The notes under the pieces were generated by a model. It was not told the origin of the DNA. It ran no database searches and saw only the letters and a program-made list of their open reading frames with translations. A stretch of DNA of 64,000 nt from Bacteroidaceae bacterium (GTDB lineage: Bacteria; Bacteroidota; Bacteroidia; Bacteroidales; Bacteroidaceae). The position numbers and the translations under genes were made by a program. Location of the stretch: positions 12,144 to 76,143 of the forward strand of contig CAAGGT010000154.1 of the NCBI GenBank assembly GCA_900769465.1, read 5' to 3'. This document shows, in pieces, positions 47,947-57,658 of the stretch; positions within the stretch are counted from its first letter, which is position 1, and every line of letters starts with the position of its first letter.

Positions 47947-49608
47947 TTATGATTGCGACAGCAATAGATTGGCTGCATCAATAGCCGCATCGGTGAGTAC
48001 CTCGCCACTCATCATCTGTGCTATCTCGCGCACCCTCTCCTGCTGTTCAAGTTCTACAATTTCAGTTACTGTACCTGCCGCTGTCTCCTCTTTGTGTACC
48101 TTGTAGTGGCGTGAGCCCAGAGCTGCCACCTGTGGCAAGTGAGTAATGCTCAACACCTGACGGTTACAGCATCCCATCTGCTGCATCATACGGCCCATAC
48201 GCTCAGCAAGTACACCCGACACACCGGTATCGACCTCGTCGAATATCAGCGCAGGCTGGCTGGTACCCGATGCCACAAGTGATTTGAGCGCAAGCATCAC
48301 GCGTGCCATCTCACCGCCCGAAGCTACATCGCATAGCGGTTGGGGGGTGCTGCTACTGTTGGCGGAGAAGAGGAACGTGATGACATCGCAACCGAAAGGA
48401 GTGAAGCCTTCGGTCACTCCAAAGTCCACCTCAAAGCGTATCATGGGCATACCAAGATTCACCAATATGGCAACCATCTCCTTTTGCAGATGCAGGGCAC
48501 TCGCCTTTCGCACCTTTGTCATTTCTGCAGCAACTTTGGCAAGCTCCTTGCCAAGAGCATCTATGCGGTGTTCCACAGCCTTTATATCATCATCGCCACA
48601 GACAATCCCGTCAAGACGTGCGGCAAAATCGGCATCGACAGCCAACAGTTCACCCACAGTCTCAACACGATGTTTCTTGAGCAGACCATATATCATAGCC
48701 AAGCGGCGCTCTACATACTCAAGCCTGTCGGGTGAATACTGCACGCGCCCGGCACGTTGCTCCATTTCACTGCAACAATCCTTGAGTTCAATATAACAAT
48801 TCTCCAGACGGGCCGACAACTCACCTGCCGCACCATAGTGTGACGACACGCGTGAAAGCGCATTTGCCGATTCGCGCAACGCCTGCAAAAGGCTGTTGCC
48901 CTCACCATCTATCCCGGAGCAGGCACCATACAACGCAGCCTGTATCTCCTCGGTATGTGAAAGTTCGCTCAACTCCTGCTCCAAAGACTCCAATTCACCA
49001 TCGGTCAATTTTGCAGCCAGCAGTTCCTCGTGCTGGAAGCGCAACCACTCCTCGTCGCGACGGCTGTTCTCCAGGCTCTCCTTGAGCCTCTTGAGTTCAG
49101 CATTCAATCCGCGATAGCTGTCGTAACGTTCCTTGTAATCATCAAGCAATGACTTGTTGTCCGACAGCATATCAACCACACGAAGCTGATAGTTCCTGTC
49201 GCCGAGCAACAGGTTCTGATGTTGCGAATGTATGTCGACCAGACGGGCACCAAGTTCCTTCAGCTGTGCTACCGATACCGGCGTATCGTTAACAAAAGCC
49301 CTGCTACGTCCCGAGGCTGCCACCTCGCGGCGCACTATGCACTCGCTGTCATAATCGAGGTCATTCTCCTCGAACCACCCCTGCAATGCCAAATCTGAGA
49401 TGTCGAAACACCCCTCTATCACACAACGGTCGGCACCTTCACGTATTGATTTTGCATCGGAACGTTGCCCAAGCAACACTGATATGGCACCCAGAAAGAC
49501 CGACTTTCCGTGACCGGTCTCACCCGTAATGACAGAAAAGCCTGCGGAGAAATCAACCTCCACACGCTCAATCAGTGCAAAATTACGTATCGATATATGC
49601 TTCAGCAT
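47947..49608 (-). CDS. recN: DNA repair protein RecN
   Basis: ATG at 49608 (MLKHISIRNFALIERV), overlapping the upstream stop as TGATG. Walker A GETGHGKS, long coiled coil, C-terminal SGGEMARVMLAL / IFDEVDTGVSG. Confidence 0.93.
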   Translation of the reverse strand: MLKHISIRNFALIERVEVDFSAGFSVITGETGHGKSVFLGAISVLLGQRSDAKSIREGADRCVIEGCFDISDLALQGWFEENDLDYDSECIVRREVAASGRSRAFVNDTPVSVAQLKELGARLVDIHSQHQNLLLGDRNYQLRVVDMLSDNKSLLDDYKERYDSYRGLNAELKRLKESLENSRRDEEWLRFQHEELLAAKLTDGELESLEQELSELSHTEEIQAALYGACSGIDGEGNSLLQALRESANALSRVSSHYGAAGELSARLENCYIELKDCCSEMEQRAGRVQYSPDRLEYVERRLAMIYGLLKKHRVETVGELLAVDADFAARLDGIVCGDDDIKAVEHRIDALGKELAKVAAEMTKVRKASALHLQKEMVAILVNLGMPMIRFEVDFGVTEGFTPFGCDVITFLFSANSSSTPQPLCDVASGGEMARVMLALKSLVASGTSQPALIFDEVDTGVSGVLAERMGRMMQQMGCCNRQVLSITHLPQVAALGSRHYKVHKEETAAGTVTEIVELEQQERVREIAQMMSGEVLTDAAIDAANLLLSQS

Positions 49609-51692
49609 CAATTGTTGTTTTTCATTATCTTATCCCACTCCGATGACAATGACGGATTTATATCGGACAATATCTCCACCACACTCTTCTTTTCATCGGG
49701 AGTACATTTTGAATATACATTGACAATCTCATCCACCTTGTACTCGGTGAATAGTTTTGTAAAATAGGCCATCGGGCGGTCCTCATAGGCCTTCTTCAAG
49801 AGGTCGAAGCTCTCTGTAATAGCCTTGCGCCCCTCGTCGGCATTCCTGAACATTGTATCAAGGCCAAGACGGTGATACTTGTACATCAGCTTGCGCACAG
49901 GTTCCATGGCACCGTTCATATAATCATCAATTATCGAATAGCGGTTGGTTCCGCCACTGCTGGCACGCCACCCTGCATCACCAAGATTCTGGGCATTGTT
50001 GGCAATTGTCAATGATTTGTTCAGGAATTCGCTGCCACCAAGTTCACCCATTGAATCCAGATCCATTCCCACAATGATATACACATAGAAGGCTATGACA
50101 GCTGTGAGATTATTGTCCAGATTATCCTCAACGAATTCCAGGCGGTCAAAAGGCTGATATTTGAATTTGATGCTCTTGTCCTCATACTGGAAGATTGTCG
50201 ACGAATAGGAAGCGCCATACACAGGACGCGAAGCCTGGACCATCAATGAGCAGTCGAAAGAACCATCGTTTGCATACGAATTGACCACGAATGTAAAGTT
50301 GCAGTTGATACGTTCCACCTCCTCGTACACGTTAGGAGTCCACTTACGGTCATTGATGAATGCCTTCAGCGCCTCTTCGAGCTGTGTAAAGACCTCGGTA
50401 TTCGAACCCTGCACCTTTGACGCATTGAGCGTTACATTCGCGTTCAGTTCCTCACCGGCGGCGCTTGCCGACAACGGCAACAGCAAGAACGCCAGAACAA
50501 GCAACAGTTTTGACAAATGTGCCACAATATCCTTTGCCACCTCCTTCTTGCTTTTCAGCGGAAAAGAACTCTTTCCCTGCCTGTCAATTATGGTTACCTT
50601 GTTGGTGTCACAGGCAAAGCCGGCTCCCTTGTCCTCAAGCGAGTTCAGGACAATGAAATCAAGATTCTTCTTCTCAAGCTTCAGACGGGCATTCTTCTCG
50701 GCATTGTTCGTCTCGAGCGCAAAGCCCACAAGCAATTGTCCTTCGCCCTTTACTGCGCCCAAAGAGGCCGCGATATCACTGTTTGGAGTAAGCTCAATGA
50801 ACATATCATCGGCTGTGCGCTTCATCTTCTCGGGTGCGCACTGCGCTGGACGATAGTCGGCCACTGCGGCAGAAAGCACGGCTACATCACAGCCGGGGAA
50901 CTCTTTCATTGCAGCATCATACATCTCGCGTGCCGACTCCACATCAATCCTTTTTATCCTGGGGTTCTTGCACTCCAGAGAAACAGGCCCTGCAACAAGG
51001 GTGACATCGGCACCGCGCGCCGCACACTCCTCGGCAATTGCAAACCCCATCTTGCCCGATGAGTAATTGCCAATGAAACGCACTGGGTCAATCTTTTCAT
51101 ATGTAGGCCCGGCCGTCACAAGCACTCTCTTGCCGGCCAGCGCGCTATTGCCTAAAAAAAAATCTTTGAGGCAGTCGACTATTGCAGCCGGCTCTTCCAT
51201 ACGCCCCTTGCCGCACAGATGGCTTGCAAGCTCACCCGATGCAGCCTCGACAATGTGGTTGCCATAGCTCTTCAGCAGCTCGACATTACGCTGTGTCGAG
51301 GGATGGGCATACATATCAAGGTCCATTGCCGGAGCTATGAATACAGGAGCCTTCATCGAGAGATAAGTGGTAACGAGCAGATTGTCGGCAACGCCACCGG
51401 CCATCTTGCCAAGTGTTGACGCCGTTGCCGGCGCTATGACCATGGCATCGGCCCACAGGCCCAACTCAACGTGGCTGTTCCAGTCGCCACTGTCACTCTT
51501 AAAGAAGTCACACATCACAGGACGCCCCGACAAAGTAGAGAGCGTCAGCGGGGTTATGAAATCCTTTGCAGCCGGTGTCATCACCACCTGCACGTTTGCT
51601 CCCTCCTTCACCAACAAGCGCACAAGCACAGCAGCCTTGTAGGCAGCTATACTACCGGTCACACCCAAAACGATATTCTTTCCTTTCAGCAT
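49608..51692 (-). CDS. coaBC: single 694-codon ORF joining CoaBC (about 50517..51692) to a DUF4835/PorD-like protein (about 49608..50516), with no stop codon between them
   Basis: The N-terminal ~392 aa are flavoprotein plus CTP-dependent ligase (GVTGSIAAYK; GPTYEKIDPVRFIGNYSSGKMG). The ORF then runs directly into a signal-peptide-like KLLLVLAFLLLPLSASAA and a DUF4835-like body (ELNANVTLNASKVQGSNTEVF...NDRKWT...QASRPVY...AFYVYIIVGMDLDS...NRYSI...YKYHRLGLD). In-frame candidate internal starts are GTG at 50525 and TTG at 50516. Confidence 0.8.
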   Translation of the reverse strand: MLKGKNIVLGVTGSIAAYKAAVLVRLLVKEGANVQVVMTPAAKDFITPLTLSTLSGRPVMCDFFKSDSGDWNSHVELGLWADAMVIAPATASTLGKMAGGVADNLLVTTYLSMKAPVFIAPAMDLDMYAHPSTQRNVELLKSYGNHIVEAASGELASHLCGKGRMEEPAAIVDCLKDFFLGNSALAGKRVLVTAGPTYEKIDPVRFIGNYSSGKMGFAIAEECAARGADVTLVAGPVSLECKNPRIKRIDVESAREMYDAAMKEFPGCDVAVLSAAVADYRPAQCAPEKMKRTADDMFIELTPNSDIAASLGAVKGEGQLLVGFALETNNAEKNARLKLEKKNLDFIVLNSLEDKGAGFACDTNKVTIIDRQGKSSFPLKSKKEVAKDIVAHLSKLLLVLAFLLLPLSASAAGEELNANVTLNASKVQGSNTEVFTQLEEALKAFINDRKWTPNVYEEVERINCNFTFVVNSYANDGSFDCSLMVQASRPVYGASYSSTIFQYEDKSIKFKYQPFDRLEFVEDNLDNNLTAVIAFYVYIIVGMDLDSMGELGGSEFLNKSLTIANNAQNLGDAGWRASSGGTNRYSIIDDYMNGAMEPVRKLMYKYHRLGLDTMFRNADEGRKAITESFDLLKKAYEDRPMAYFTKLFTEYKVDEIVNVYSKCTPDEKKSVVEILSDINPSLSSEWDKIMKNNN

Positions 51693-53833: not shown

Positions 53834-54202
53834 ATGGAGATTACAGGAAAAATCATCGCAGTGCTTCCCGAGAGAGGCGGCGTATCAAAGACAGGAAATG
53901 AGTGGAAAATGCAGGAATACGTACTGGAGACACACGAGCAGTTCCCGAAGAAACTTTGTTTTAACGTATTCGGTGCAGACAAGATAGCGCAGTTCAACAT
54001 TCAGGCAGGCGACGAGCTTACAGTGTCATTCGACATCAACGCACGCGAGTACAATGGCCGTTGGTACAACGATATCCGCGCTTGGAGAGTAGAGCGTGGC
54101 GCAGCTCCTGCACCGGCAGATACACCGGTCATCAATGCGCCAAAGGTTGATGTCCCCGACTTCAGCAAGGCTGCAAACGACCCCGACGACCTTCCTTTCT
54201 AA
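53834..54202 (+). CDS. DUF3127 domain-containing protein
   Basis: Start chosen at the ATG at 53834 (MEITGKIIAVLPERGGVSKTGNEWKMQEYVLETHEQFPKKLCFNVFG...). This is the pattern I associate with DUF3127 (small OB-like Bacteroidota proteins). Confidence 0.65.
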   Translation: MEITGKIIAVLPERGGVSKTGNEWKMQEYVLETHEQFPKKLCFNVFGADKIAQFNIQAGDELTVSFDINAREYNGRWYNDIRAWRVERGAAPAPADTPVINAPKVDVPDFSKAANDPDDLPF

Positions 54203-54230
54203 ACAATAGGAACCGTTGGTTTACAAACAG

Positions 54231-54258
54231 TTTAGGCGCACCATATGGTGCGCCTAAA
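54231..54258. terminator. bidirectional terminator between the DUF3127 gene and the radical SAM gene
   Basis: TTTAGGCGCACC-atat-GGTGCGCCTAAA perfect 12-bp stem with A/T-rich flanks. Confidence 0.75.
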
Positions 54259-54302
54259 TTTTATATTACATCTGACGGAGATTCTACAGCAAGAAGCTTT
54301 GT

Positions 54303-55376
54303 CTATCCCTGCCTCAGGCGTTCAAGATTGCAATGCATCAGACACTCGTTCTCGTCATACAGATGCATTCCGTTTCCAAGACAATATCGCCAGGACTTGC
54401 AGGAGGCACACTTGTCTTTCTTTGCCCAACTGCGGTCACGGAACTTTGTAAAACGCTCATTCCACACGTCCCAGAGATTATCTGTATAGATATTCCCCTG
54501 ATCGAAATTCGCCCTTATGCTAGTGCATCCCGATATCGAGCCGTCTACACGTATTCCGGCGATACCGATACCGGCCATACAGCCGAAAAAGGTATCCCTG
54601 ACCTCGGCCTCGTAGCCTCCCAGAAAGCCTTCACAGGCGTATGAACATTTTATCCGACCCTCTTTGCGGGTTGCAGCTATGAAATCCATAAGAGAACGGT
54701 ACTGCTGCGGTGCAAGCTGGAGTTTCTCATTATCCGAAGCCCTGCCGGCAGGGAAAATGGTAAATATTCTCCACGCCTTGCAACCTTCGCTTATCAAGAA
54801 CTCCTTGAAGTCATTCAGAGAATCCAGACTGTCGGGCGTAACACACGTCACGACATCATAGGGAACGCGGTTCTTGACCAGCAGACGCAACGCCCTCACA
54901 GCATTCCTGAAACTTGCAGGGTTACGCCTTATGGAGTTGTGGTACTCCTCGAAACCATCGATCGAGAGAGCCACGACACTCATTCCGGCACCCATCAACG
55001 ATGCCAGGCGCTTTTCATCGAGCAGCATTCCATTGGTGACGATACCCCACCTATATCCTCGCGAGCAGAGTTCCCTGCCCACATCCTCAAGGTCCTTTCG
55101 CAGCAAAGCCTCGCCACCGGTGATGGTGACCAGTACTTTCTTTGTATCCACATGAGGGGTAAGCGTGTCAACGGCACGCAGGAAATCCTCGGCCGACATA
55201 TCCTTGACATTGGACACGGCACGACAATCGCTGCCGCAGTGGCCGCAATTCAAGTTACAGCGCAAGGTACACTCCCAGAACAGCACCTTCAGTTCGTGTT
55301 CCTTTACCAGGTCCTTGCGCACCGAAGCGAACAGTTCCAGCGCAATACGTTTGCGGAGTGAGAGCTTACAACTCAT
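54303..55376 (-). CDS. radical SAM enzyme with C-terminal SPASM/twitch-like auxiliary Fe-S domain
   Basis: 357 aa. CX3CX2C = CNLNCGHC near the N-terminus, and a GGEALL SAM-binding motif (ITGGEALLRKD). C-terminal Cys cluster: CSYAC, FGCMAG...GSISGC, CASCKSWRYC, CLMHC. Confidence 0.85.
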   Translation of the reverse strand: MSCKLSLRKRIALELFASVRKDLVKEHELKVLFWECTLRCNLNCGHCGSDCRAVSNVKDMSAEDFLRAVDTLTPHVDTKKVLVTITGGEALLRKDLEDVGRELCSRGYRWGIVTNGMLLDEKRLASLMGAGMSVVALSIDGFEEYHNSIRRNPASFRNAVRALRLLVKNRVPYDVVTCVTPDSLDSLNDFKEFLISEGCKAWRIFTIFPAGRASDNEKLQLAPQQYRSLMDFIAATRKEGRIKCSYACEGFLGGYEAEVRDTFFGCMAGIGIAGIRVDGSISGCTSIRANFDQGNIYTDNLWDVWNERFTKFRDRSWAKKDKCASCKSWRYCLGNGMHLYDENECLMHCNLERLRQG

Positions 55377-55579
55377 TCTGCTTCTGTCGAATCCCCTTCG
55401 GGCATAGCCTCATTCTCCTCTCCCTCTACCTGCTCCTGTGCCGAACAGTGCTCGCAAAAATCCTCATACTCGTTGTATGATTCATCGTAGAAATCACCAT
55501 AGCATGCAGTCAGCATCGGCAATGACGAAAAGCCCAACAACAGGATTGAATACTTTTTCAGTTTTTTCTTGAAACTCAT
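55373..55579 (-). CDS. small acidic Cys/Tyr-rich putative lipoprotein, translationally coupled to the radical SAM gene
   Basis: 68 aa. MSFKKKLKKYSILLLGFSSLPMLTA|C has a lipobox. The mature 43 aa are CYGDFYDESYNEYEDFCEHCSAQEQVEGEENEAMPEGDSTEAE. The stop overlaps the rSAM ATG (ATGA at 55373-55376). Confidence 0.65.
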   Translation of the reverse strand: MSFKKKLKKYSILLLGFSSLPMLTACYGDFYDESYNEYEDFCEHCSAQEQVEGEENEAMPEGDSTEAE

Positions 55580-55640
55580 AACATTACAAAATTACGATAA
55601 GGTAAAAAAGAGATTCTTCCCATGCTTGCGGAAGTCTTTG

Positions 55641-55671
55641 CAAACATAGGAAGAATTTGTCTATAATCAAA
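55641..55671 (-). promoter_or_regulatory. Bacteroidota-type promoter (TTTG-N19-TAtgTTTG) for the lipoprotein-rSAM pair
   Basis: On the minus strand, TTTG is plus-strand caaa at 55668-55671 and TATGTTTG is plus-strand caaacata at 55641-55648. The spacer is 19 nt, and the leader to the ATG at 55579 is ~60 nt. Confidence 0.5.
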
Positions 55672-55696
55672 AAATATAAATAATTTTAACAAAACG

Positions 55697-57658
55697 TCAT
55701 GAGTTCATACTCAACAGGAATTCATCGTTGTCCTTGGTCCTTTCGAGCCTGTCCTTCACAAATTCCATCGCCTCAATCGGCGTCATGTCCGAAAGATACT
55801 TACGCAGTATCCACATACGGTCAAGAGTCTGGCGGTCGAGCAACAGATCATCACGACGTGTCGACGATGCAATAATGTTCACTGCTGGGAAAATACGCTT
55901 GTTTGCAAGTGAACGGTCGAGCTGAAGCTCCATGTTACCCGTACCCTTGAACTCCTCGAAGATGACCTCGTCCATCTTTGAACCGGTATCAATGAGTGCT
56001 GTCGCTATGATTGTGAGCGAACCGCCATTCTCAATGTTACGGGCTGCACCAAAGAAACGCTTGGGTTTGTGCAGTGCATTGGCATCGACACCACCCGAAA
56101 GCACCTTACCCGATGCCGGAGAGACTGTATTATAGGCACGCGCAAGACGTGTGATGGAGTCAAGGAAAATCACCACATCGTGTCCACACTCAACCATGCG
56201 CTTTGCACGCTCAAGAACAATGCCGGCAATCTTCACGTGACGCTCGGCCGGTTCATCGAATGTAGATGCAATGACCTCGGCATTCACTGAGCGTGCCATA
56301 TCGGTCACCTCCTCGGGGCGCTCATCTATGAGCAACATAATCATATAGGCCTCGGGGTGGTTTGCTGCAATGGCATTGGCAATGTCCTTAAGAAGCATTG
56401 TCTTACCCGTCTTTGGCTGGGCCACAATGAGACCGCGCTGTCCCTTGCCTATGGGCGAGAAGAGATCAACGACACGCGCCGAAAGATTATCGTAGCTACC
56501 GGTACAGAGTGTGAATTTCTCATCGGGGAACAATGGGGTGAGGTTCTCGAAAGAGACGCGGTCACGCACAAGTTCGGGCGACGAGCCGTTGATGCGGTTC
56601 ACCTTTACAAGTGGGAAATATTTCTCACCTGCCGATGCCGGACGTATTATACCCTCCACGACATCACCGGTTTTGAGACCATAGAGCTTTATCTGCGATT
56701 GTGATACATAAACATCATCGGGCGAAGCAAGATAGTTGTAGTCCGAAGAGCGCAGGAAACCATAGTTGTCGGGCATTATCTCAAGCACACCCTCAACACG
56801 CAGCACATCGGCAAAGTCATATTGCTTTGCGGCAGGCTGATGCTCCTCGGGCTGCTGTTCACGCCTTTCGTTATTGTGACGGTTCTTCTTGTCATTATTC
56901 TTCTGTCCCTTGTTGCTCTTCTCGAACTTGTCCACAAGCTCCGATGGCAACTCTCTTGAGTCTGTAGGCAGATTCTCTATAGCCACGAATGATTCACCTT
57001 CGTCAACGGGAGAAACGATGTTTTCCTGAACCGGAGCAGCCGCCTGCTCAACAGATTGCTGTTCTGCAACCTTGTTCTTGGGCTTGCGGCCACGCTTCTT
57101 TGGAGCCGGCTCACCATTCACAGGTGTCTCCGCTGCGGCCTCCACCACGGGAGTTTCCTCGGTCACAACGGTCTCGGCCGACACGTCGGCGGCATTAGCC
57201 TTTTCACTCTTTGGTTTGCGGCCACGTTTCTTTTGCTTCGAAACCTCGGGCGTAGCCTGCGGAGCGACAGCCTCAACAGCAGCCGGGGCTGCAGTCTTTT
57301 CTTCTACGACAGGCTGCACTGCAACCTTCTCGACAACCTTTACAGGTTCGTTTTCAGGTTTCTGTCTCTTTGGCTCATCCTTTTCAACCTTAACGGCCTT
57401 TTCACCGGTCGCCGTATAGACCTTGCTCGGAGCATCGGAGTGTATGCGGTTGCGACGATGCTCACGGCGAGTCATCCTGTTCTCTTCCTTCACCACAGCC
57501 GGCGCCCCACTCTTGCTGTTCTGCATAGCCTGCCCGTCAAGAATACGGTAAATCAATTCATCCCTGCCAAGCGACTTGATGCCCTTGATTCCTAAATCCT
57601 GAGCAATGGATTGCAAATCGGCAATCTCCTTGCTTCTCAATTGTTCTATATGATACAT
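55697..57658 (-). CDS. rho: transcription termination factor Rho with ~230-aa N-terminal insertion
   Basis: 653 aa. Rho_N ([14 protein letters not shown]), a low-complexity K/P/A/E/V insertion, the RNA-binding [14 protein letters not shown], Walker A AQPKTGKT and Walker [11 protein letters not shown]. Confidence 0.95.

Follow-up and report, generated by a model that had tools for sequence, protein, structure and literature searches.

What does a radical S-adenosylmethionine (SAM) enzyme with a SPASM domain act on, when the gene next to it encodes a lipoprotein of only 68 amino acids (aa)? The question is raised by a two-gene unit in a 64,000-nucleotide stretch of DNA from a Bacteroidaceae bacterium (GenBank assembly GCA_900769465.1, contig CAAGGT010000154.1, positions 12,144 to 76,143), which is referred to below as the window; positions are counted from its first nucleotide. 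Both open reading frames (ORFs) are on the minus strand. The pre-lipoprotein gene occupies 55373..55579 and is followed by the gene for a 357-aa radical SAM (rSAM) enzyme at 54303..55376, the stop codon of the small gene overlapping the ATG of the large one in the sequence ATGA. This two-gene unit had been proposed in an earlier reading of the letters alone (the original prediction), and both ORFs and their coordinates were confirmed. The cassette is a self-contained two-gene unit of the rSAM/lipoprotein system of Bacteroidales, a system already defined bioinformatically as TIGR04133/TIGR04134 (hypothetical equivalogs). We infer that the lipoprotein is the substrate of the enzyme, that a Tyr-Gly dipeptide is the site of modification and that modification takes place before export.

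The enzyme and its obligate neighbour

By its profile match the enzyme is unambiguously a member of TIGR04133. It scores 541.6 bits against this NCBIfam model (cut-off 425; E = 6.7e-163) over profile positions 1-349 of 350, and the next families in NCBIfam (AhbD, TIGR04053, the GDL-motif and nif11 peptide maturases, and NirJ2) reach at most 130 bits. Close homologues carry source names such as 'TIGR04133 family radical SAM/SPASM protein' and 'radical SAM enzyme (rSAM/lipoprotein system)'. Pfam searches returned Radical_SAM (77.9 bits) and SPASM (36.6 bits) and no domain beyond these two, in line with the class originally assigned to the protein, and all the motifs named with that assignment are present: CNLNCGHC (residues 40-47), GGEALL (87-92), GSISGC (279-284), CASCKSWRYC (323-332) and CLMHC (345-349). 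At E<=1e-20 the enzyme has matches in more than 5,600 protein clusters. The best relatives come from metagenome-assembled genomes (MAGs) of Alistipes and other Rikenellaceae, with 77% identity, and metagenome proteins reach up to 97%.

Conservation was assessed in an alignment of 40 family members, on which an AlphaFold2 (AF2) model was also based. The cysteines of the CX3CX2C radical SAM cluster motif (C40, C44 and C47; 55236..55259, minus strand) are invariant, as are C51, which lies beside this motif in CGSDC, C178 and His338. In the SPASM region (54330..54635, minus strand) C248, C266, C284, C323, C326, C332 and C349 are all invariant. A helix at residues 7-26, near the N-terminus, is conserved as well, with L7, R8, L13 and L15 invariant or nearly so. 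The AF2 model has a predicted local distance difference test (pLDDT) score of 84.9 and a predicted template modelling score of 0.86; a model built from the single sequence (pLDDT 45) was discarded.

In a Foldseek comparison of the model with the Protein Data Bank (PDB), SkfB ranked first, followed by anSMEcpe, SuiB, PqqE and BlsE. The match to anSMEcpe extends over the full length, about 365 aligned columns, with template modelling scores of 0.69-0.71 on both normalisations, and the family profile reaches anSME (residues 39-346), SuiB and PqqE. When the profile is aligned to anSMEcpe, C266/C284 correspond to C255/C276, C323/C326/C332 correspond to C317/C320/C326, and C349 falls near C348; Gly336 stands at the position of C330, a ligand of auxiliary cluster I (Aux I) in anSME, and anSME C261 has no counterpart. 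Judged from these correspondences, the second auxiliary cluster (Aux II) looks complete. Aux I, if present, would be held by three cysteines (C248, C266 and C284), its remaining position being open or occupied by a non-Cys ligand.

A scan of species-representative genomes yielded 182 loci of the family, of which the best 80 are used for the comparisons given here; individual loci are designated by numbers with the prefix L. In 80 of these 80 loci the rSAM gene is directly preceded, on the same strand, by a lipoprotein gene. The loci span Rikenellaceae, Porphyromonas, Muribaculaceae, Prevotellaceae, Paludibacter, Lentimicrobium and one Chlorobiota-labelled MAG. The median gap between the two genes is 3 nt, and they overlap in 29 of the 69 pairs measured. 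This pairing is far beyond chance, and the original prediction had looked to obligate co-occurrence as a means of checking it, which the survey has now borne out. All-against-all clustering of the flanking ORFs of 81 loci revealed no conserved third gene, and the cassette is regarded as self-contained for want of any other conserved neighbour. The complete cassette, including a canonical long-form partner, is seen also in Lentimicrobium (L062) and in the Chlorobiota-labelled MAG (L075); its occurrence in the latter may reflect a wider distribution, lateral transfer, or an error of binning or labelling.

A truncated lipoprotein partner

The small protein consists of MSFKKKLKKYSILLLGFSSLPMLTA up to the lipobox cleavage point and CYGDFYDESYNEYEDFCEHCSAQEQVEGEENEAMPEGDSTEAE beyond it. 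The first part and the Cys that follows it constitute a lipoprotein signal peptide with an LTA-C lipobox, encoded immediately upstream of the TIGR04133 gene. The signal peptide proper (residues 1-25; 55505..55579, minus strand) includes a family-specific LLGFS element as well as the lipobox LTA, and is followed by Cys26-Tyr27-Gly28 (55496..55504, minus strand), that is, the lipidation Cys and then a conserved Tyr-Gly, the candidate modification site. The mature peptide of 43 aa contains 16 Asp/Glu, no Lys/Arg, 4 Tyr and 3 Cys and has a pI of about 4.05; the counts and the lipobox had been given exactly so in the original prediction.

That prediction had also named the TIGR04133/TIGR04134 pair as a candidate assignment. 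This was right for the enzyme, which exceeds its cut-off as described above, and did not hold for the 68-aa protein, which has no match to NCBIfam TIGR04134 even at E<=1 (cut-off 39.8 bits). The model itself works: the partners in L024, L032, L036, L062 and L080 score 80-118 bits. The partners from Alistipes and Tidjanibacter score 28-30 bits, below the cut-off, and a short form from Porphyromonas scores 17 bits, through its signal peptide only. The window protein can be aligned with the Rikenellaceae partners over its first ~45 residues, with G16, F17, S18, P21, L23, T24, A25, C26, Y27 and Y31 invariant, and BLASTP against the long form of Alistipes in L001 gives E = 7e-11. It ends about 17 residues past a vestigial EQVEG, corresponding to (E/D)QVEG, which is aligned to the start of the first beta-strand, and the CarboxypepD_reg-like beta-sandwich with its D[IV]DGxxNG motif is absent from it. 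Judged by these alignments, the 68-aa protein is an N-terminally homologous, truncated derivative of the TIGR04134 partner without the beta-sandwich domain. This minimal, short-only partner variant, missed by the curated TIGR04134 model, is what the window adds to the system.

The canonical partners are 120-170 aa long and consist of a lipobox signal peptide, a short linker and a CarboxypepD_reg-like beta-sandwich with D[IV]DGxxNG; their Pfam matches to this domain are consistent but sub-threshold, and the criterion of beta-sandwich plus D[IV]DGxxNG is our own description of the long forms and not a curated definition. In the long forms (for example L062:3567-3992 and L032:3535-3981) D[IV]DGxxNG is strongly conserved in the second half of the domain and is followed in many of them by GDG.WY.G. 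It may be a metal- or ligand-binding site.

Two elements are common to the long and the short partners, as judged from a set of 81 lipoproteins. One is a distinctive signal peptide that carries h-G-[FLY] (h, hydrophobic) a little ahead of the lipobox. G[FLY] is present at this place in 65 of 81 partners and in 2 of 33 other lipoprotein-like signal peptides of the same loci, and LG[FLY] in 51/81 against 1/33 (Fisher p = 7e-10). Conservation of these signal peptides across families is unusually high (...LLGF[ST]x(x)C, with a long basic n-region), which suggests a role beyond export. The other element, and the only one in the mature region, is [E/M/C]-Y-G-[T/S/M/V]-P-x-x-x-[F/Y], which lies 1-54 residues after the lipobox Cys. 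Y-G-x-P is found in 74 of 81 partners; 1000 shuffles gave 1.7 on average and never more than 8. In Rikenellaceae it comes directly after the lipobox (LTA followed by CYG[MTV]P), many partners have a Cys at -1 or -2 of the motif Tyr (CYG, C[EM]YG), and the motif occurs twice in L051, L034, L031/54/56, L080, L024 and L069. In the window protein Tyr-Gly likewise comes directly after Cys26 and the Pro is replaced (CYGDF); Y-G-x-P is relaxed in L005, L006, L014 and L018 too. Since the Tyr of Y-G is the conserved residue of the mature region, the Tyr-centred chemistry that the original prediction listed among its options has become plausible.

In 13 of the 80 loci a single rSAM gene is accompanied by 2-4 tandem paralogous lipoprotein genes; such arrays include L042:2026-3935, L058:2276-3992, L080:2900-6180, L027, L079, L024, L069 and L051. 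The usual order in Porphyromonas is one or more long forms, a short form of 85 aa and then the rSAM gene, and 16 of the 19 Porphyromonas loci with a short partner adjacent to the rSAM gene also carry a long form just upstream. Independent domain loss, at first considered as the origin of the Porphyromonas short forms, was revised in view of these long-form paralogues. Three paralogues (L028:1841-2317, L055:2343-2831 and L058:1743-2231) have lost both Y-G-x-P and the h-G-F element.

The clade to which the window protein belongs comprises seven short proteins, P0001-P0007, of 52-72 aa; P0001 is identical to the window protein. They have in common the signal peptide, CYG[DNP][FYA]YD, ...DF.E... 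and a tail rich in acidic residues, which is poorly conserved, changing rapidly and by indels as well. The original prediction pointed to the cysteines of a C..FC.HC pattern as worth following across relatives. The CEHC cysteines occur only in P0001 and P0002 and not in P0003-P0007, and the pattern is therefore lineage-specific; a Cys crosslink at these residues is unlikely, as they are present in only 2 of 7 short-form proteins. The lipobox Cys is the only conserved Cys of the clade, and for the same reason a Cys crosslink of the sactipeptide/ranthipeptide type was rejected.

Among the short-form genomes the rSAM gene has diverged at synonymous sites (dS) from 0.28 to more than 2, and its ratio of nonsynonymous to synonymous rates (dN/dS) is 0.02-0.04; for the small ORF dN/dS is 0.16-0.43. 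Within codons 1-28 of the small ORF, which cover the signal peptide and C-Y-G, the proportion of nonsynonymous differences (pN) is 0-0.045, against 0.33-0.74 for synonymous ones (pS). Five lineages have preserved its frame, its length and its overlap with the rSAM gene even though the rSAM dS reaches more than 2. The short ORF is under purifying selection: because frame, length and overlap are kept and pN is low in codons 1-28, it is a maintained coding gene and not debris.

Possible roles of the lipoprotein

A pairing of enzyme and substrate fits these observations best, for several reasons. The two genes are obligately linked and tightly coupled, no third component accompanies them, and some loci pair one enzyme with several partner paralogues. 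What the partners share is a linear motif in an unstructured segment plus a signal peptide, and not a folded domain; in the window clade the domain is gone, and strong constraint still acts on the motif region and on the enzyme. Finally, the closest structural relatives of the enzyme, as far as the predicted model indicates, modify proteins or peptides. In the reading we favour, to which we give an even chance, an anSME-like cytoplasmic maturase modifies the Tyr-Gly of the pre-lipoprotein before Sec export and uses the signal peptide as a leader-like handle. The enzyme, which is cytoplasmic and lacks a recognition domain, would bind the nascent or unfolded pre-lipoprotein, probably through the unusually conserved signal peptide (LLGFS...C). 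A radical modification would then be made at Tyr-Gly, that is, within Y-G-x-P in most of the family and at C-Y-G after the lipobox in Rikenellaceae and the window. After this step the precursor would pass through Sec, receive its lipid at Cys26 and be cleaved by signal peptidase II, leaving a lipid-anchored, strongly acidic peptide of 43 residues on display. The window clade has lost the beta-sandwich and retained only the presumed recognition and modification module. As to the chemistry, the conserved residues are Tyr and Gly, joined by Pro outside Rikenellaceae; our guess is that hydrogen is abstracted from Tyr C-beta or Gly C-alpha and that the auxiliary clusters then mediate a two-electron oxidation or a short-range crosslink.

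Several points weigh against this proposal. The enzyme and the mature lipoprotein end in different compartments. For this there is a precedent in anSME, a cytoplasmic enzyme whose substrates are sulfatases exported by Sec: it oxidises a Cys or Ser within a short linear motif of these proteins ahead of their export, including in Bacteroides. The enzyme has no recognition element (RRE) of the kind used for peptides that are made on the ribosome and modified after translation (RiPPs), only a 20-residue N-terminal helix preceding the core, and the cassette encodes neither a peptidase nor a transporter. The motif Pro is lost in the window clade (CYGDF, CYGNY, CYGPA), and two Alistipes partners have YA or YD in place of YG; the candidate site is thus less strict than most RiPP cores. 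In sequence the enzyme resembles SPASM enzymes that act on small molecules (AhbD, NirJ2, BlsE) as much as it resembles peptide maturases, and a long-form paralogue may exist elsewhere in the genome, outside the 64-kb window. A literature search on TIGR04133/TIGR04134, the NCBI product names, and SPASM plus lipoprotein found no paper on the family in the library searched, and no published chemistry or phenotype for it; a single mention of 'TIGR04134' was set aside, as it appears to be a slip for the model of the C-terminal domain of the type IX secretion system.

The similarity to small-molecule enzymes could mean that the lipoprotein is a functional partner of the rSAM protein and not its substrate: the enzyme would make or alter a small molecule (tetrapyrrole-like, a sugar-nucleotide or a lipid), and the lipoprotein would bind, carry or sense the product or a related extracellular ligand. 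AhbD (130 bits) and NirJ2 are the next-best NCBIfam families, the decarboxylase BlsE is the best sequence match in the PDB, and the lipid-coupling GDGT-MAS also matches. The lack of an RRE, a peptidase and a transporter would be natural for such an enzyme, and the CarboxypepD_reg-like beta-sandwich of the long forms, with D[IV]DGxxNG, could be a binding domain. These similarities are, however, far below the family cut-offs (130 against 500 bits), and what the long and short partners have in common is a linear motif in an unstructured segment, not a folded domain. The window clade is without the domain, yet its enzyme is kept at a dN/dS of about 0.03. No biosynthetic or transport genes co-occur with the cassette, and the full-length fold matches favour modifiers of peptides or proteins. 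We consider a small-molecule function unlikely on balance.

The possibility of a long-form paralogue leads to another explanation, in which the 68-aa ORF is a truncated and functionally marginal remnant and the real substrates are long-form TIGR04134 paralogues elsewhere in the genome. The loss of the beta-sandwich and of the motif Pro, the failure to match TIGR04134 and the fast evolution of the tail, with indels, are all compatible with this, and the long-form paralogue upstream in 16 of 19 short-partner loci of Porphyromonas shows that short forms can be accessory. Against it, a search for a long-form TIGR04134-like homologue found none in the 64-kb window, nor in the DNA flanking the cassette in four relatives that share its synteny; the short ORF keeps its frame, its length (63-72 aa), its promoter and its overlap with the rSAM gene; and purifying selection on codons 1-28 is strong. 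The explanation is accordingly rated as quite improbable.

In the auxiliary cluster I of CteB an open coordination site is reported to bind a substrate Cys. An enzyme acting in this manner on the lipobox Cys26, its surroundings or the lipid (for example, through a thioether) instead of on Tyr-Gly would account for the lipobox Cys being the only universally conserved Cys of the partners, for the Cys at -1 or -2 of Tyr in many of them and for the lack of two anSME Aux I ligands (Gly336 for C330, and no C261), which leaves C248, C266 and C284, but it is very unlikely, as outside Rikenellaceae YGxP and the lipobox Cys can be as much as 54 residues apart and the two elements are thus separable, a change to the Cys thiol before export would block lipidation by Lgt, and the invariant His338 could be the fourth Aux I ligand.

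The favoured reading, modification of Tyr-Gly before export, can be carried one speculative step further. The product might be termed a 'lipo-RiPP', in which the signal peptide doubles as the leader for an RRE-less rSAM enzyme, X-Tyr-Gly is converted to a new structure, and the peptide receives its lipid and is presented at the surface of Bacteroidales of the gut and mouth. It could contain a dehydro- or crosslinked tyrosine, possibly an anaerobically made Tyr-derived chromophore or cofactor, and the 43-residue mature peptide of the window would be its natural minimal form. We hold this extension to be improbable.

TIGR04133/TIGR04134 is a widespread orphan rSAM system in host-associated Bacteroidales (among them Alistipes, Tidjanibacter, Porphyromonas, Muribaculaceae, Prevotellaceae). 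The present analysis narrows the search for a modification to the Tyr-Gly(-x-Pro) motif and the peculiar signal peptide. We found no earlier description of Y-G-x-P, of the signal peptide particular to the family, of the arrays of tandem partners, of the enzyme's lack of an RRE or of its incomplete set of Aux I cysteines. The naturally minimised partner (68 aa, 43 aa when mature) is a handy minimal candidate substrate, and because a peptide of 43-68 aa can be made synthetically, the reaction is directly testable in vitro. If the lipoprotein is indeed modified, it would be, to our knowledge, the first bacterial lipoprotein for which a dedicated radical SAM modification exists, and rSAM maturation ahead of Sec export would have a second example besides anSME.

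Locus context and comparison with known systems

The cassette is flanked by housekeeping genes, with rho upstream and, downstream, a convergent DUF3127 gene, dnaN, an RNase T-like exonuclease gene and coaBC. The order rho-lipoprotein-rSAM-DUF3127(-dnaN) is the same in four relatives. In one short-form relative two ORFs of 231 aa and 61 aa (L086:1475-2385; no Pfam match) split rho from the lipoprotein gene; the adjacency is otherwise conserved. Farther along the window, at 49608..51692 on the minus strand, a single ORF of 694 aa combines CoaBC (Flavoprotein and DFP, residues 5-369) with a complete DUF4835 (residues 415-689), with a signal-peptide-like stretch between the domains. It is either a true fusion or two in-frame genes without an intervening stop codon, the second having an internal start.

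Two regulatory elements named in the original prediction were recovered. The first is a promoter, TTTG-N19-TAtgTTTG (TTTG-N19-TANNTTTG), at 55641..55671 (minus strand), upstream of the cassette. A sigma-70 consensus scan was dropped as uninformative for Bacteroidetes promoters and the TTTG/TAnnTTTG pattern was used instead; this Bacteroidetes-type pattern has 4 matches in the window compared with 0.96 expected. The -33 element TTTG (55668..55671, minus strand) has a TTTG/TTTTG equivalent in the relatives, and at the position of the -7 element TAtgTTTG (55641..55648, minus strand) TAnnTTTG is kept in all five short-form genomes, that is, the window and four relatives. The second element is the shared bidirectional terminator, a hairpin with a 14-bp stem at 54229..54260 between the convergent rSAM and DUF3127 genes and common to both, for which terminator-like calls were obtained on each strand.

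A further hairpin is located between the stop codon of rho and the start of the lipoprotein gene (55601..55656, minus strand). Its 17-bp stem has arms at 55656..55640 and 55629..55613 and is followed by a U-run at 55612..55601, and the -7 promoter box is embedded in its 5' arm. The RNA fold has an energy of -24.3 kcal/mol (z = -6.5). Across the five genomes 95% of cells are paired and 6 pairs show compensatory double changes, a level of conservation reached by 0 of 500 shuffles. It is probably the intrinsic terminator of rho overlapping the operon promoter, or else a palindromic operator. An Rfam scan of 54100..55800 detected no riboswitch or known RNA; its sole match was a chance-level 5.8S (E = 0.78).

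Among systems already known, the best non-self sequence similarities of the enzyme are to AhbD (130.3 bits in NCBIfam) and BlsE (profile E = 2e-17 in the PDB). However, the scores for AhbD, NirJ2 (123.5 bits) and NirJ (102.1 bits) are about a quarter of the cut-offs of these families, which are 500-650 bits, and there is no heme or heme d1 gene context here; the obligate linkage is to a lipoprotein instead.

The rSAM/SPASM maturases of RiPPs (SkfB, SuiB, PqqE, MftC, CteB and the triceptide 3-CyFE enzymes) are a parallel in several respects. SkfB, SuiB and PqqE are among the top fold matches, and here as there the putative substrate is encoded next door, sometimes in tandem copies, with a short conserved core motif; loci with tandem partners for a single enzyme resemble multi-precursor RiPP clusters. 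There are also differences. The features of RRE-dependent maturases of the sactipeptide, ranthipeptide or streptide type were not found: there is no RRE/PqqD-like domain or partner, no protease, no ABC exporter and no conserved third gene. A Sec/lipoprotein signal peptide would serve as the 'leader', the product would remain anchored by its lipid, and the Tyr-Gly core has no conserved Cys, Glu or Lys as a crosslink partner.

With the TIGR04133/TIGR04134 system itself the cassette agrees in its above-cut-off enzyme, in the order of lipoprotein and then rSAM gene, and in their tight coupling. The window partner is like the TIGR04134 proteins in its lipobox signal peptide, the family-typical LLGFS and the Tyr-Gly after the lipobox. 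It is unlike them in its lack of a profile match, in its length (68 aa compared with about 120-170), in the loss of the beta-sandwich, of D[IV]DGxxNG and of the motif Pro, and in its fast-evolving acidic tail.

A further analogue of the enzyme, in architecture and in the mode of action proposed here, is anSME (anSMEcpe, PDB 4K36-4K39). The two are alike in size, in having an rSAM core with a C-terminal SPASM domain and in the absence of an RRE. They differ in that the present enzyme is only 19-20% identical to anSME, lacks two of its Aux I cysteines and has the extra N-terminal helix at residues 7-26; no anSME family appears among its best 25 NCBIfam matches, and its partner does not contain the (C/S)xPxR motif of sulfatases. 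Whereas anSME serves many dispersed sulfatases, the enzyme described here has a dedicated putative substrate gene immediately beside it.

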